Origin: a virus
Strand: one strand, 5' to 3'
Length of the DNA stretch: 37,258 nt
IMG/VR virus record: IMGVR_UViG_3300045988_170598
Span: 1 to 37,258 of that record
In this document: positions 1-37,258 of the stretch, one piece after another
Position numbering within the stretch: position 1 is the first letter of the stretch
Layout of the letters: each line of letters begins with the position of its first letter
The notes under the pieces: generated by a model
Told to the model about the DNA's origin: nothing
Databases searched by the model: none
The model's input: only the letters and a program-made list of their open reading frames with translations
Made by a program: the position numbers and the translations under genes

Positions 1-99
1 ATTTAAATTCTGGAATGTTACCTAAGGATGTAATTGAAAAAATTAGGAATATGAAAGAAGAGGATTTAAAAAAAGAAAATAATGAAAATGAAAAAAAAG
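1..99. repeat. 99-bp terminal overlap, identical to 37160-37258 (circular-contig closure)
   Basis: Direct comparison of the first and last 99 bases. The reading frame of the protease gene continues across the junction. Confidence 0.95.
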
Positions 100-185
100 A
101 AATTAATTCATTAAAAGAAAAGCTAGTATTTAAGAATAAAAGTGTGACTAGCTTTTTATTATGTCAAAAAGAAGGGATGTTATAA
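1..185 (+). CDS. prohead (head maturation) protease, ClpP/S14 family: C-terminal end of the gene that starts at 36613
   Basis: The frame starting at base 3 continues the frame of 36613..37258 through the overlap. The TAA at 183-185 abuts the capsid ATG at 186. Confidence 0.85.
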   Translation, partial: LNSGMLPKDVIEKIRNMKEEDLKKENNENEKKEINSLKEKLVFKNKSVTSFLLCQKEGML

Positions 186-1400
186 ATGTCAAAAGAATTA
201 AGAGAATTATTAAATCAGTTAGATTCAAAGAATAAGGAGTTAAATTCTTTATTAAATAAAGATGGAGTAACAGCTGAAGAATTAAATAAAACTTCAAATG
301 AAATAGATATTTTACAAGCAAAAATTGAAGCTCAAAAAAGAAAAGAAAATATTGAAAATAACTTCAATGAAGATAATGTTAAGTCTTTAAATACAGGAAA
401 AGAAGAAAATGTTATTTATAATGGTGCTTTATTTGTTAGAGCAATAGCAGACAATTTACTTAAACAAAAAAATCAAAGAGGATTAAATCTTTCTGAAAAA
501 GAAATAAATGCTATATCAGAAAATATAGATGAAGATGGTGGCTATACTGTTCCAGAGGATATTCAGACAAAGATTAATACAAGATTAAAAGACACAACAG
601 ATTTATATAACATGGTAGATTATGAGCCTGTATTTACTAGAAGTGGTAGTAGAACATATGAAAAGAGAAGTAAGCAAAAACCTATGAAACCATTAAGTGA
701 AAACCAACAGATTCCTACTAATGGCGATAATGGTAAACTTGAGAGATTTAATTTTAAATTAAAAGATTTAGCAGATTTTATGTCAATACCAAATGATTTA
801 TTAAAATTTGCTGATAAAAGTTTAGAAGATTGGATAATAAATTGGTTTGTAGATAAAGTTAGAATAACTAGAAATGCAGAAATTTTATATGGAGCAGGTG
901 GAGATGAACATGCTACTGGTATTATGACAGCAAATAAATTTAAAAAGATTACATTACCAAAATCACCAGCATTAAAGGATTTTAAGAAATGTAAAAATGT
1001 TGAGTTATTAAATGTATTTAAAGCAACTTCTAGTTGGATTGTTAATCAAGATGGATTTAACTACTTAGATAGTTTAGAAGATAAGACAGGTAGACCATAT
1101 CTTCAACCAGATCCAAAAGACCCAACACAATATAGATTCTTAGGATTACCAGTTATTGAATTACCTAACGACCTTTTATTATCAACTGAAAGTGCTATTC
1201 CAGTTTTATTAGGTGATACAAAAGAAGCTTATAAATATGTTTCAGATGGAGCATATGAACTCGCTACAACAAATATAGGAGCTGGAGCATTTGAAACTAA
1301 CACAACAAAGGCAAGAATAATAATGAGAATAGATGGAAATGTTAAAGATTCAGAAGCATTATTAATTGCAGAAATTCCAGTTGAATCAGTACAAGCTTAA
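186..1400 (+). CDS. major capsid protein, HK97-like, with N-terminal coiled-coil delta/scaffold domain
   Basis: 404 aa, directly after the ClpP-type protease and portal. Charged coiled-coil N-terminus (residues about 1-60). No separate scaffold gene is present. Confidence 0.85.
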   Translation: MSKELRELLNQLDSKNKELNSLLNKDGVTAEELNKTSNEIDILQAKIEAQKRKENIENNFNEDNVKSLNTGKEENVIYNGALFVRAIADNLLKQKNQRGLNLSEKEINAISENIDEDGGYTVPEDIQTKINTRLKDTTDLYNMVDYEPVFTRSGSRTYEKRSKQKPMKPLSENQQIPTNGDNGKLERFNFKLKDLADFMSIPNDLLKFADKSLEDWIINWFVDKVRITRNAEILYGAGGDEHATGIMTANKFKKITLPKSPALKDFKKCKNVELLNVFKATSSWIVNQDGFNYLDSLEDKTGRPYLQPDPKDPTQYRFLGLPVIELPNDLLLSTESAIPVLLGDTKEAYKYVSDGAYELATTNIGAGAFETNTTKARIIMRIDGNVKDSEALLIAEIPVESVQA

Positions 1401-1417
1401 AAAGTTGGTGAAAATTA

Positions 1418-1717
1418 ATGATATTATCTGTAGATGAAGTTAAAAATTATCTTAGAGTTGATTATGATGAAGATGATATTTTAATACAAGATTTGATAGA
1501 ATCAGCTGAAGATTATTTATATAATGCTACTGGTAAAAAATTCACAGAAAAAAATAAGTTAGCTAAAAGGTATTGTCTAGCTTTAGTTTATGATTGGTAT
1601 AAGGATAAAGGAATGAATATAAGAGCAACTAAAAACACTACTGTAAGTGAAAAAGTTAAATATACATTACAGTCTATCCTTTTACAATTAAAATTTTGTA
1701 AGGAGGAAGATACCTAA
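1418..1717 (+). CDS. head-tail connector protein (gp6-like, Phage_connect_1 type)
   Basis: 99 aa. The N-terminal motif LSVDEVKNYLRVDYDEDDILIQDLIESAEDYL is typical of this family. The gene sits after the capsid gene. Confidence 0.75.
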   Translation: MILSVDEVKNYLRVDYDEDDILIQDLIESAEDYLYNATGKKFTEKNKLAKRYCLALVYDWYKDKGMNIRATKNTTVSEKVKYTLQSILLQLKFCKEEDT

Positions 1718-35192: not shown

Positions 35193-35196
35193 TAAT

Positions 35197-35376
35197 ATGA
35201 AAAAATTAAAACAAATTTTCTATGATTATATAGAAGATTTTTTTATTTTCTTAGGGTTATTAATAATAGTAATTACTACATTAATATTAAATATATTTGT
35301 AGGAATGTATGTGCTTGGAGCTATATTATTAATTTTAGGAATTTTCTTTGCAAAGCATCCTTTTAAAAGGAGGTGA
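35197..35376 (+). CDS. 59-aa two-TM membrane protein between terL and portal, not in the ORF track
   Basis: ATG at 35197 with GGAG 8 nt upstream. TGA at 35374-35376. Hydrophobic segments FFIFLGLLIIVITTLILNIF and GMYVLGAILLILGIFF. Confidence 0.5.
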   Translation: MKKLKQIFYDYIEDFFIFLGLLIIVITTLILNIFVGMYVLGAILLILGIFFAKHPFKRR

Positions 35377-35383
35377 TATATAA

Positions 35384-36613
35384 TTGCTTTTCAGAAAAGG
35401 CTTTAAAAACCAAAGTCAAGAAATATCTATAGATGATAAAAAAATACTTGAATGGTTAGGAATAAATCCAAGTGAAACATATGTTAATGGTAAGAGTTGT
35501 TTAAAACAAGCAACAGTTTTTGGGTGTATAAGAATTTTAAGTGATAATATAAGCAAATTACCTATAAAAATTTATCAAAAAAAGGATGGAATAAAAAGAG
35601 TTCCAGATCATTATTTAGAATATTTATTGAAATTAAGACCCAATCCTTATATGAGTTCTAGTGATTTTTGGAAGTGTATTGAAGTTCAAAGAAATATTTA
35701 TGGAAATGCATATGTTGCTTTAGATTTTAAGAAAAATGGTGAAATAAAGGGATTATATCCTTTGAAATCCGATGGAATGAAAATATTTGTTGATGATACT
35801 GGCCTTTTAAATTCAGAAAACAATGTTTGGTATTTATATACTGATGATTTAGGCCAAAGGCATAAGTTTATGAGTGATGAAATTTTACATTTTAAAGGAT
35901 TAACAGCTGATGGTTTAGCTGGACTAAGTGTTATTGAATTATTAAATCATTTAATAGAGAATGGAAAAAGTTCAGAAACTTATTTAAATAATTTCTTTAA
36001 AAATGGATTACAAGTTAAAGGCTTAGTTCAATATGCTGGAGATTTGAATCCAGAAGCAGAAGAAGTTTTTAAAGAAAATTTTGAAAGAATGTCTAGTGGT
36101 TTAAAAAATGCACATAGAATAGCTATGTTACCTATAGGATATAAATTTGAACCTATAAGTCAAAAATTAGTTGATGCACAATTTTTAGAAAACTCTCAAT
36201 TAACAATAAGACAAATTGCTTCAGTTTTTGGAGTTAAAATGCACCAATTAAATGATTTAGATAGAGCAACACATTCTAACATTACAGAGCAAAACAGAGA
36301 ATTTTATATTGATACATTACAATCAATATTAAATATGTACGAGCTTGAAATTAATTATAAATTATTTTTAATCAGCGAAATAAAAAATGGATTTTACTCA
36401 AAGTTTAATGTAGATACAATTTTGAGAGCTGATATAAAAACAAGATATGAAAGTTATAAAGAAGCTATTCAAAATGGATTTAAAACTCCTAATGAAATCA
36501 GAGAATTAGAAGAGGATGAACCTTTAGAAGGTGGAGATGTTCTTTTAATTAATGGTAATATGATTCCAGTAAAAATGGCTGGGGAACAGTATTCGAAAGG
36601 GGGTGAAAAATAG
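35384..36613 (+). CDS. portal protein, HK97 family (TTG start)
   Basis: 409 aa, located between terL and the ClpP-type protease. SD AGGAGGTGA lies 7 nt before the TTG. Confidence 0.85.
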   Translation: MLFRKGFKNQSQEISIDDKKILEWLGINPSETYVNGKSCLKQATVFGCIRILSDNISKLPIKIYQKKDGIKRVPDHYLEYLLKLRPNPYMSSSDFWKCIEVQRNIYGNAYVALDFKKNGEIKGLYPLKSDGMKIFVDDTGLLNSENNVWYLYTDDLGQRHKFMSDEILHFKGLTADGLAGLSVIELLNHLIENGKSSETYLNNFFKNGLQVKGLVQYAGDLNPEAEEVFKENFERMSSGLKNAHRIAMLPIGYKFEPISQKLVDAQFLENSQLTIRQIASVFGVKMHQLNDLDRATHSNITEQNREFYIDTLQSILNMYELEINYKLFLISEIKNGFYSKFNVDTILRADIKTRYESYKEAIQNGFKTPNEIRELEEDEPLEGGDVLLINGNMIPVKMAGEQYSKGGEK

Positions 36614-37258
36614 TGGCAAAAGTAAATATAAAAGGTCCTATAATTTCAAGTGATGAAAAATGGATATATAATTGGTTTGGAATGGATGCAACATGTGCTA
36701 GGGATGTTGAAAAAGTAATAAATTCAGTTCAACAAGGTGAACAATTGGAAGTTATAATCAATAGTAATGGTGGTTATGTTGATGAAGGTTCTGAAATTTA
36801 TACATTGTTAAAGGATTATAATGGTGAAGTTGTTATTAAAATAGTTGGAATGGCAGCGAGTGCAGCAAGCGTTATTGCTATGGGTGGTGATAAAGTTAAA
36901 ATTTCACCAACTGGAAGAATAATGATACATAATGCTGCTGGAGGAGTATGTGGAGATTACAGACAAATGGAGCATGGAGCAGAGGTTCTAAAAGATTGCA
37001 ATGAAGCAATAGCTAATGCTTATGCACTTAAAACTGGAATGAGTAAAGAAGAATTATTAGATTTAATGAATAAAGAAACATTTATGAATGCACAAAAAGC
37101 AAAACAATTAGGCTTTGTAGATGAAATTATGTTTGATAATTCGAATAGACTTGTTAATGATTTAAATTCTGGAATGTTACCTAAGGATGTAATTGAAAAA
37201 ATTAGGAATATGAAAGAAGAGGATTTAAAAAAAGAAAATAATGAAAATGAAAAAAAAG
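36613..37258 (+). CDS. prohead protease, ClpP/S14 family (GTG start overlapping the portal stop; continues at 100-185 through the circular junction)
   Basis: LEVIINSNGGYVDEGSEIYTLL....VVIKIVGMAASAASVIAMGGDKV.ISPTGRIMIHNA matches the ClpP-like serine protease pattern. Confidence 0.85.
   Translation, partial: MAKVNIKGPIISSDEKWIYNWFGMDATCARDVEKVINSVQQGEQLEVIINSNGGYVDEGSEIYTLLKDYNGEVVIKIVGMAASAASVIAMGGDKVKISPTGRIMIHNAAGGVCGDYRQMEHGAEVLKDCNEAIANAYALKTGMSKEELLDLMNKETFMNAQKAKQLGFVDEIMFDNSNRLVNDLNSGMLPKDVIEKIRNMKEEDLKKENNENEKK

Follow-up and report, generated by a model that had tools for sequence, protein, structure and literature searches.

Probable plasmid maintenance of a circular 37-kb siphovirus of Clostridium perfringens related to phiSM101

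The stretch of viral DNA analysed here (the window) is the whole of IMG/VR record IMGVR_UViG_3300045988_170598, 37,258 bp with a G+C content of 28.2%. It very probably represents a complete circular temperate siphovirus of Clostridium perfringens, 37,159 bp long and a member of the phiSM101 family, which is kept as a low-copy plasmid instead of integrating. A 4.4-kb cassette (~18.8-23.5 kb) fills the slot between the endolysin and repressor genes; in the integrating phage PhiS63 the equivalent slot holds a serine integrase, whereas in the window it holds partition (par) and replication (rep) genes. The kind of element is already known, and near-identical or identical sequences are already public. 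Feature coordinates are collected in Table 1.

The first-pass annotation, made from the sequence alone, had described the window as a closed circle of 37,159 bp with an exact 99-bp end overlap of the type left by assemblers, crossed by the frame of a ClpP-type protease. All of this is borne out. Self-alignment of the window ends gives a 99-bp identity, and 99 bp is also the length of the longest prefix that matches a suffix. The frame 36613..37258 continues through 100..185 as one open protein of 243 amino acids (aa) across the join, with a match to PF00574 CLP_protease (1.5e-32); the protease has the same length in phiSM101 and pCPC645_4. A 1.2-kb probe centred on the join is unbroken in phiSM101 (99.9% identity over 1200 nt) and collinear in pCPC645_4 (96.2% over 1198 nt).

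Four other records of this or a closely related element open the circle at different points. The pCPC645_4 record opens at window 26325/26326, and the human-gut contig k127_28239 in ENA opens at window 27833, with 100% identity over 17.5 kb. The NCBI contig DAYRHI010000025.1 (GCA_043328255.1) matches the unit length to the base (37,159 bp) and shows 100% identity along 20.9 kb. MEGAHIT contig names carry the final k-mer; k127_28239 is 37,286 bp long, which is 37,159 + 127, and this length fits an overlap set by the assembler's k and not by biology. The overlap of the window is not a biological terminal repeat, since it sits in the middle of an essential gene and far from the packaging genes. 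The true unit is a circle of 37,159 bp and the 99-bp overlap is an assembly artefact.

Comparison with the episomal phages of Clostridium, which the first-pass annotation had suggested, identifies phiSM101 (NC_008265 / CP000315) as the closest phage. It is circular, about 38 kb in length, has the same module order and also lacks an integrase. The packaging and head region is 99.7% identical to it in DNA and 99-100% in protein, and the early region 95-98%; outside the cassette and the tail-spike/lysis region, DNA identity is 95-99.7%, and most genes are 92-100% identical at the protein level. The CI-like repressor, HUH Rep, RinA, tRNA-Asn and HNH-TerS-TerL genes are the same. phiSM101, whose host is strain SM101, has been known since 2006 as an episomal prophage (PMC3442830, PMC7969092); its genome paper is cited as an example of a phage-plasmid in Clostridiales (PMC7969092), and a family of 'phage-like' plasmids has been reported in C. 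perfringens (PMC10210947).

The window and phiSM101 differ in the cassette. There is no DNA similarity at window 18846-23227; at this place phiSM101 encodes a 274-aa 'plasmid replication protein' that is unrelated and has no Pfam domain, and its ParM, a distant ALP_N protein, is oppositely oriented. Identity falls to 83-90% in the tail spike and endolysin, and the Dam methylase of phiSM101 is absent from the window. pCPC645_4 (NZ_CP075960.1), a circularly permuted record, shows the opposite distribution: it matches the window at 99.7-99.9% over 19.4 kb of cassette and early region, with a 100% identical ParM and the same RepA_N gene and iterons, whereas the structural region (tail, lysis) is 84-94% identical. 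It is also larger (38.8 kb), with a tail spike of 2693 aa and an extra Dam methylase. From these comparisons the window is effectively a mosaic, with phiSM101-like head and packaging genes and a pCPC645_4-like cassette.

PhiS63 (NC_017978), an integrating siphovirus with 3'-cos ends, has the same layout of endolysin, lysogeny slot, repressor and early operon. Its endolysin is 85% identical and it has early homologues (HNH protein 63%, HUH Rep 58%, winged-helix protein 58%, others 51-93%). It differs in carrying a 502-aa serine integrase in the slot, with sigK as target (PMC3442830), and its structural genes are only distantly related.

The replication part of the cassette encodes an initiator of the RepA_N family. 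This assignment, proposed at first reading, is confirmed by the match to PF06970 (2.6e-21) and by similarity to the solved RepA N-terminal domains of the staphylococcal plasmids pSK41 and pTZ2162 (9e-26). The start codon is probably ATG 21841, as judged by comparison with relatives, and the longer open reading frame (ORF) from 21781 is probably not used. Only C. perfringens elements give full-length matches, and matches in Streptococcus and Staphylococcus phages span only residues ~10-173; conservation of the C-terminal domain within the host genus only is a trait of the RepA_N family. A theta replicon had also been claimed. The initiator stands; the theta mode is suggested by family membership and origin architecture.

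The putative origin lies inside repA and matches the signature of the family. Its 23-bp iterons (22232-22295) have inverted GTGTGA/TCACA arms around an A tract (AAAA), and they are found at the same position in the diverged repA genes of three C. perfringens elements (L001, L005, L006). In RepA_N plasmids the iterons form direct repeats, semi-palindromic in sequence, that converge on a poly-A tract (PMC7145576, PMC5703833), and the origin of pSK41 consists of Rep boxes central within rep (PMC5703833). GC/AT skew was uninformative for origin location, as it follows the coding strand.

The partition part was first read as a ParM/ParR pair. ParM is secure: besides the ALP_N domain (4.8e-17), it matches phrog_691 'partition protein' (1e-48) and the pCBH ParM of C. 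botulinum (6izr, 8e-9). The 98-aa protein encoded directly downstream of parM is a ParR candidate, assigned from its position and predicted shape. Its N-terminal ~50 residues are strongly conserved (strand-helix-helix) and are followed by an acidic linker of variable sequence and, at the C-terminus, by a conserved SMPD tail. An AlphaFold2 model of moderate confidence has an unstructured N-terminus and helices at 9-24 and 29-61, as would be expected for a ribbon-helix-helix monomer.

The region upstream of parM has the layout of a parC centromere, with a repeat array that appears to lie over the parM promoter. The motif ACATTG-N-TTTCAAT has five matches in the window (allowing at most 2 mismatches), all of them at 21305-21454, and the repeats overlap a promoter-like site (21379->21351) that faces parM. 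The region is kept, with changes, in the related loci L032 and L033. Repeats upstream of parM are also the parC layout of R1, pSK41 and pCW3 (PMC9426499). The pCW3-like conjugative plasmids, whose ParMRC systems form families A-J, share with the element the host and a type II layout in which centromere repeats precede parM and rep is a separate gene (PMC9426499).

A tblastn search with the window ParM (E<=1e-5) returned 28 plasmid records only. They comprise plasmids of 35-62 kb from C. perfringens, 74 kb from C. baratii and 235-276 kb from C. botulinum and C. sporogenes, together with records of 127-136 kb (five from C. difficile and one from Clostridiaceae). A ~47-kb plasmid of the pCW3 type does not appear to be among the 28; the window ParM is therefore a lineage apart from pCW3-type ParM, and compatibility with toxin plasmids would be expected.

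No recombinase was recognised in the window, in agreement with the first-pass annotation, which had also proposed a search of all six frames. A Pfam scan of all gene-like ORFs and of antisense ORFs of at least 100 aa found no tyrosine or serine recombinase, transposase or protelomerase (PF00589, PF00239 and PF07508 included). Six-frame tblastn with the serine integrase of PhiS63, the tyrosine integrase of phi3626 and phi3626 ORF46 gave best E values of 0.14-1.4, in unrelated genes. There is no room for a recombinase between genes, as all intergenic gaps are shorter than 510 bp. An N15-type protelomerase domain is absent from every Pfam-scanned ORF; the sequence closes as a circle and the relatives include circular records. 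No dif-like Xer site was found with the B. subtilis consensus at up to 8 mismatches, which is a weak test as the C. perfringens dif may differ.

One early protein of 327 aa (28049-29032, plus strand; phrog_31923), the largest in the window that belongs to no family, was considered as a hidden recombinase and rejected. Its model, built from a 23-sequence alignment, is all-helical with a disordered stretch at 215-268, and its match to Cre (E=9, TM score 0.12) is noise. It has no sequence or structural relative in PDB. C. perfringens phages of either kind, episomal or integrated, keep the protein; PhiS63, which has an integrase of its own, is among them.

Contig sizes in public assemblies separate the element from its integrated relatives. 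Exact copies of the window ParM occur in 70 blocks of assemblies; the longest contig is 20-50 kb in 40 of them and never exceeds 50 kb. The same limit of 50 kb holds for exact TerL (61 blocks of assemblies) and for the exact 327-aa protein (16 contigs). Homologues of the 327-aa protein with at least 53% identity are never on contigs above 200 kb (0 of 43 clusters; maximum 92 kb), whereas those below 53%, which belong to PhiS63-type prophages, are on such contigs in 37 of 77 clusters, with sizes up to 3.6 Mb (Fisher p = 1e-9). In complete genomes, the C. perfringens relatives of the element are separate replicons, some of them recorded as circular.

These results bear on the possibility that the window is an ordinary integrating prophage seen as an excised circle or replicative form, with recombination carried out by a host Xer-type or an unrecognised enzyme. 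Circular assembly alone cannot tell an episome from an excised or replicating phage, and several ORFs of the window have no assigned function. The searches above nevertheless give no match to an integrase, resolvase or transposase, either among the ORFs or across the six frames, and the exact ParM, TerL and early protein are never found on large contigs, where integrated relatives are common. An integrating prophage is very unlikely on this evidence. The claim that the element is maintained as an extrachromosomal plasmid rather than integrated is indirectly supported by the cassette in the integrase slot, the plasmid relatives and the contig-size test.

A number of observations weigh against this reading. 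The evidence for it comes from sequence and public assemblies. Several relatives in PLSDB are labelled 'linear', probably because the assemblies were not circularised. No multimer-resolution function was found in the window, and dimer resolution is thus unexplained. The ParR candidate has no match in Pfam, NCBIfam or PDB sequences, and none by BLASTP to the CopG-type ParR of pCPC216_3; in Foldseek its best E value is 2.2, with ribbon-helix-helix proteins among the weak matches. On a different phage backbone, a related ParM/ParR element is found inside contigs of 762,825 bp (L033) and 622,081 bp (L035), next to chromosomal genes; the par cassette does not, therefore, always mean an episome, and this also speaks for an integrating prophage. 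In both, ParR is 75% identical to that of the window, the left end is common and the flanks differ between the genomes; there is no tRNA or integrase within 10 kb. The placement may be a real integration or a mis-join, and the element is not that of the window. Genes for CitG and a sugar-binding regulator, and for pyruvate formate-lyase, are found in the flanks. Finally, a RepA_N domain alone is no proof of a plasmid replicon, since ordinary integrating or virulent streptococcal phages use it; a plasmid role for the initiator of the window is suggested by context and not by the domain.

This last point opens another possibility: ParM and RepA_N might serve the lytic cycle, as DNA-positioning filament and initiator, in a non-lysogenic or pseudolysogenic phage that is not inherited as a plasmid. 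RepA_N-domain initiators occur in the replication modules of many streptococcal phages, and the window is a metagenome contig from the Joint Genome Institute (JGI), so the physical state of the DNA is not fixed by its source. The early operon, however, already has an initiator of its own. The HUH-type protein encoded at 26636-27379 is a second initiator that was overlooked in the first reading. It matches phrog_3584 'replication initiation' (8.9e-84) and phrog_3419 'rolling circle' (5e-14), has an HHH motif at 128-130 and a YxxK motif (YMLK, 169-172) with Y169 as the tyrosine, and shares 58% identity with gp32 of PhiS63, an integrating phage; it has no match among PDB sequences. It is probably the lytic replicon, with rolling-circle-like replication.

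Further evidence argues for inheritance as a plasmid and not for a lytic role. The par/rep cassette lies outside the early operon, beside the CI-type repressor, and relatives exchange it as a unit; these relatives are resident replicons of cultured isolates. A 14,620-bp circular plasmid, pZ1322PCP0088-5 (L005, NZ_CP148709.1), has the same RepA type and a ParM as its sole recognisable maintenance genes, without early and packaging genes. The predicted antisense RNA, buried ribosome-binding site (RBS) and centromere repeats would fit low-copy maintenance. A purely lytic role for the two proteins is thus highly improbable.

The cassette is exchangeable, as comparison of relatives indicates: phiSM101 has another Rep and ParM in the same place, and par or rep units occur on other backbones. 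pCPC216_3 has the same replicon unit (RepA_N, iterons and leader) with a PBSX-type terminase and a ParM of another lineage. Conversely, a 45-kb contig with a different early region has the exact window ParM and the same par unit. pZ1322PCP0088-5 retains a CopG-type ParR, lysis genes and two baseplate genes and is devoid of packaging, head and early genes; it looks like a deletion derivative of a phage-plasmid.

Upstream of repA there is a predicted control region. The perfect DnaA box TTATCCACA occurs three times in the window against 0.33 expected (0/100 shuffles), each time in the cassette. Two copies are in tandem and overlap the start codon of the 148-aa gene; the third (21526-21534) forms an inverted pair with a one-mismatch copy on the minus strand (21558-21566), and this pair upstream of the initiator gene is kept in diverged relatives.

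A candidate antisense RNA of ~95 nt (z = -4.5) is predicted opposite the repA leader. Its parts are a promoter (TTGACA-17-TACAAT, 21765->21737), a 7-bp stem-loop 1 (21693-21707), a 15-bp stem-loop 2 (21639-21684) and a U6 terminator. Covariation was examined in nine distinct leaders from C. perfringens plasmids. In the stems, 98% of cells are paired, compared with 33-59% when partners are slid, and seven pairs are compensatory; 0/500 shuffles reach the observed values. About 25 cells, counted from pair-type tables, are G.U on the minus strand (C.A on the plus strand) and none are the reverse; because G.U pairs occur on the minus strand only, this is the folded strand. An outer helix proposed by RNAalifold (columns 9-24 with 108-119) was discarded as A/T-rich pairing between promoter and U tract. 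An Rfam search of the whole window (E<=0.1) found the tRNA alone and no known family at the repA leader.

On the plus strand, the RBS of the repA leader is buried in a 21-bp stem (z = -7.9). A conserved segment farther upstream, GAAAGTATC, lies inside the antisense target and can pair with one arm of the RBS stem as an alternative. By analogy, the arrangement resembles the RNAI control of pSK41 rep. A review describes antisense control as unseen in RepA_N plasmids outside staphylococci and DnaA boxes as undetected in staphylococcal plasmids (PMC5703833). The same leader/antisense unit also precedes initiators with DnaD/DnaB_2 domains and of helix-turn-helix (HTH) type in C. perfringens plasmids of 35-95 kb (L039-L043, L029-L038), which suggests that control region and initiator are exchanged independently. 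Records name these non-homologous initiators DnaD-domain protein, HTH protein or, in error, 'RNA replicase'.

The staphylococcal plasmid pSK41, which has a RepA_N initiator, also has a ParM/ParR type II partition system. The N-terminal domain of its RepA is homologous to that of the window (4pta/4pt7/4pql, 1e-22 to 1e-25), its initiator repeats are central in rep, and it has a short two-stem-loop antisense RNA on the rep leader, as predicted here (PMC5703833). In contrast to the element, pSK41 is a conjugative resistance plasmid without phage genes; neither its RNA nor its ParR is similar in sequence to the predicted counterpart here, the C-terminal domain of RepA is not conserved outside clostridia, and DnaA boxes are found in the window.

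Coliphage P1, the archetypal plasmid prophage, is comparable in its way of life. This temperate phage persists as a circular plasmid at low copy number and has an iteron replicon with DnaA boxes, an active partition system and a separate lytic replicon (PMC7969092). No component is homologous: P1 has a Rep_3-type RepA, ParAB (type I), Cre/lox and headful packaging, whereas the element has RepA_N, a probable ParMR system (type II), no recombinase and probable cos-type packaging. The design would thus parallel that of P1, with a plasmid and a lytic replicon built from unrelated Gram-positive parts.

In the proposed life cycle, linear cos-ended virion DNA would become a circle after injection. 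Where the CI-like repressor then silences the early operon, RepA would bind the semi-palindromic iterons in its own gene and start theta replication with host factors; the conserved upstream DnaA boxes suggest that host DnaA takes part. The ~95-nt antisense RNA may throttle the supply of RepA by acting on the leader, whose RBS is otherwise held in the 21-bp stem. With ParR bound to the parC repeats that precede parM, filaments of ParM would separate sister copies at division. Upon induction, the HUH Rep of the early operon would drive lytic, probably rolling-circle, replication to concatemers, RinA would switch on the late genes, and HNH-TerS-TerL would cut cos and package the DNA.

Table 1. 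Features of the window, in order of position, and two related par elements in other assemblies
Feature	Position	Strand	Basis or remark
Left overlap copy	1..99		Exact match to 37160-37258; inside protease gene
HK97-family major capsid protein	186..1400	+	PF05065, 6.4e-40; 99.8% aa identity to phiSM101
Head-tail joining: gp6-like connector, head closure, DUF4064 membrane protein, gp10-like	1418..2871	+	Annotation of relatives
Tail completion, gp17-like	2877..3227	+	PF11367, 27.4 bits vs 24.5 cut-off
Tail module: major tail protein, 2 small ORFs in chaperone position, tape measure (4494-8033), Dit (8023-8736), 2 small ORFs	3243..9363	+	Annotation of relatives
Tail spike / prophage-tail endopeptidase, 2408 aa	9381..16607	+	PF06605, 1.6e-47
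Lysis module: small ORFs, holin-like proteins (16892-17681), GH25+SH3 endolysin (17770-18798)	16626..18798	+	
HTH/coiled-coil protein, 148-161 aa	18839-19285/19324	-	Travels with par genes to other phage backbones
Tandem perfect DnaA boxes, TTATCCACA x2	19278..19295	+	Overlap start codon of 148-aa gene
AbrB/MazE-fold protein, 60 aa	19388-19570	-	Travels with par genes to other phage backbones
Two small hydrophobic-peptide ORFs: 40 aa (19835-19957), 28 aa (19671-19757)	19671..19957	-	
ParR candidate, 98 aa	20073..20369	-	Directly downstream of parM
ParM-type actin-like partition ATPase	20381..21289	-	PF17989 ALP_N, 4.8e-17, 63 bits vs 26.3 cut-off
parC-like centromere	21305..21454		Repeats of ACATTG-N-TTTCAAT; one is an 18-bp palindrome
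Inverted DnaA-box pair	21526..21566		TTATCCACA and a one-mismatch copy on the minus strand
Candidate ~95-nt antisense RNA to repA leader	21633..21730	-	
RepA_N-family initiator, 276 aa	21841..22671	+	PF06970, 2.6e-21, 75.7 bits vs 30 cut-off
Candidate origin inside repA	22232..22338		23-bp iterons x2.8, then 15-bp repeat x2.7
160-aa protein	22717..	+	Closes cassette with HTH_3 regulator
HTH_3 regulator, 83 aa	23265-23516	-	End of cassette
Lysogeny switch: CI-like repressor (23812-24174, -) and divergent intergenic region	23812..24402		
Early operon: small ORFs, HTH (24982-25716), HNH (25716-26108), HUH initiator, winged-helix, 327-aa all-helical, YopX, zinc-ribbon	24403..31086	+	
HUH-type rolling-circle-like Rep	26636..27379	+	PF23343, 7e-15, 55.5 bits
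RinA-family late-gene activator	31113..31574	+	TIGR01636, 34.8 bits vs 31.9 cut-off
tRNA-Asn (GTT)	31849..31922	+	
Packaging: HNH endonuclease (32380-32814), TerS P27-type (32918-33439), TerL (33447-35192), 59-aa ORF, portal (35384-36613)	32380..36613	+	
cos candidate	32806..32917		G+C-rich, intergenic
ClpP-type head maturation protease, 5' part	36613..37258	+	PF00574; rest is 100-185
Right overlap copy	37160..37258		Exact match to 1-99
L033	GCA_030322155.1, 762,825-bp contig, 223-243 kb		Related par element with RepA_N or DnaB_2-type initiator
L035	GCA_030320745.1, 622,081-bp contig, 314-334 kb		Related par element with RepA_N or DnaB_2-type initiator

Modules were assigned with Pfam, PHROGs and NCBIfam together with the annotation of relatives. 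The presence of every phage module, stated in the first-pass annotation, is confirmed in each case by these databases. The window holds the full set of a temperate phage (virion, packaging, lysis and lysogeny control) beside plasmid-type replication and partition genes, and is probably a phage-plasmid in the sense of Pfeifer et al. 2021 (PMC7969092).

The completeness of this set bears on whether the element is instead a plasmid with a defective phage part, that is, a cryptic and non-inducible phage-like plasmid. The virion and its induction are predicted from sequence; degenerate derivatives such as the 14.6-kb pZ1322PCP0088-5 exist, and the tail-completion gene has no canonical start codon. 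However, structural, packaging, lysis and regulatory genes are all intact ORFs with 92-100% protein identity to phiSM101, and the head and packaging genes are evidently conserved across dozens of assemblies. A defective phage part is therefore unlikely, and a functional temperate phage kept as a plasmid is preferred.

The tail-completion gene fills an apparent 371-bp gap (2872-3242). It has no ATG, GTG or TTG start and probably begins at ATA 2877, which follows a strong RBS (GAGGTGA). It has been left unannotated in all relatives examined (phiSM101 and PGAP-annotated plasmids). The whole family has this unusual start codon, which is therefore a feature, not a lesion.

In the major tail protein gene, a perfect 27-bp tandem duplication at the 3' end (3811-3864) yields the C-terminal repeat LTLAEPADP-LTLAEPADP. 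The tail spike gene is the most variable structural gene among the relatives, with 70-90% nucleotide identity, and the endolysin is ~86% identical to that of phiSM101. A Dam-type DNA adenine methylase gene of ~780 bp sits between holin and endolysin in phiSM101 and pCPC645_4; it is missing from the window at 17681-17770. Homologues of the holin-like protein are misnamed 'cobalt ABC transporter permease' in source records.

The packaging genes have 99-100% aa identity to phiSM101. The genes for HNH endonuclease, P27-type TerS and TerL are adjacent, which would fit HNH-dependent cos packaging (HK97-like), and the TerL of phiSM101 clusters with those of 3'-cos phages (PMC3442830). In the cos-candidate spacer, only a loose GGGGTAGGG..CAAAAAGTTTT..GGGC motif is common with the right ends of phi3626 and PhiS63; the cos core of these two phages, CGCAGTGTCTA, is absent from the spacer (32806-32917).

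In the lysogeny switch, the divergent intergenic region has repeated AAAAAATGATTGT motifs and promoter-like sites, and the CI-like repressor has 96.7% aa identity to that of phiSM101. Early-operon proteins share 85-100% aa identity with phiSM101 and 50-93% with PhiS63. Downstream, the mechanical ORF 31716-31988 is spurious, as it overlies the tRNA-Asn gene.

The small genes of the cassette include two hydrophobic peptides, of 40 aa (MSNKKKKSNKELKVELVIARLAFFTALIKLIKTILEILFK) and 28 aa (MKQEKELKLWIIGTIILIVLTILLKIFF). A bidirectional terminator (19814-19829) lies between their ORFs, with a facing promoter-like site (19760-19788). Neither peptide has a family match; they are possibly type I toxin-like, and the layout recalls type I toxin-antitoxin loci. 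The AbrB/MazE-fold and 148-aa proteins were considered as a toxin-antitoxin pair and rejected, given an intervening terminator and the lack of a toxin family match; the 148-aa protein looks like an HTH/coiled-coil protein. PADLOC detects no defence system in the window and gives generic HTH matches only. Source records of homologues misname the 151-aa cassette protein as 'alanyl-tRNA synthetase' (JGI) and an initiator as 'RNA replicase'.

The general significance of the element is modest because its kind is already known. As its main by-products, the analysis points to an exchangeable cassette, a design with two replicons and a predicted antisense-RNA/DnaA-box control region. The element can serve as an example for annotation: a circular unit without integrase, with par and rep genes in the integrase slot and with two replicons. 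With such an example, the many 35-40-kb contigs labelled 'plasmid' in gut metagenomes and in genomes of C. perfringens may be easier to class.

The cassette could be a portable 'plasmidisation module' that is able to take the place of an integrase and so make a siphovirus a plasmid prophage, a proposal for and against which the evidence is evenly balanced. The control unit (paired DnaA boxes, ~95-nt antisense RNA and self-sequestering leader) would then be a plug-in placed before at least three non-homologous types of initiator on C. perfringens phage-plasmids (RepA_N, DnaD/DnaB_2-domain and HTH). If this is true, it would provide an antisense-RNA-controlled RepA_N replicon outside staphylococci, where the review states that such control is unseen (PMC5703833), and a RepA_N-type replicon with DnaA boxes. 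The predicted RNA and boxes are testable leads on copy control in clostridial replicons of the RepA_N type.

Phages of the phiSM101 type swap the whole replication and partition cassette while the virion genes remain almost unchanged. C. perfringens strains can carry up to ten plasmids, so that compatibility matters. Cassette swapping is a plausible means of escape from incompatibility with resident plasmids and sibling phage-plasmids.

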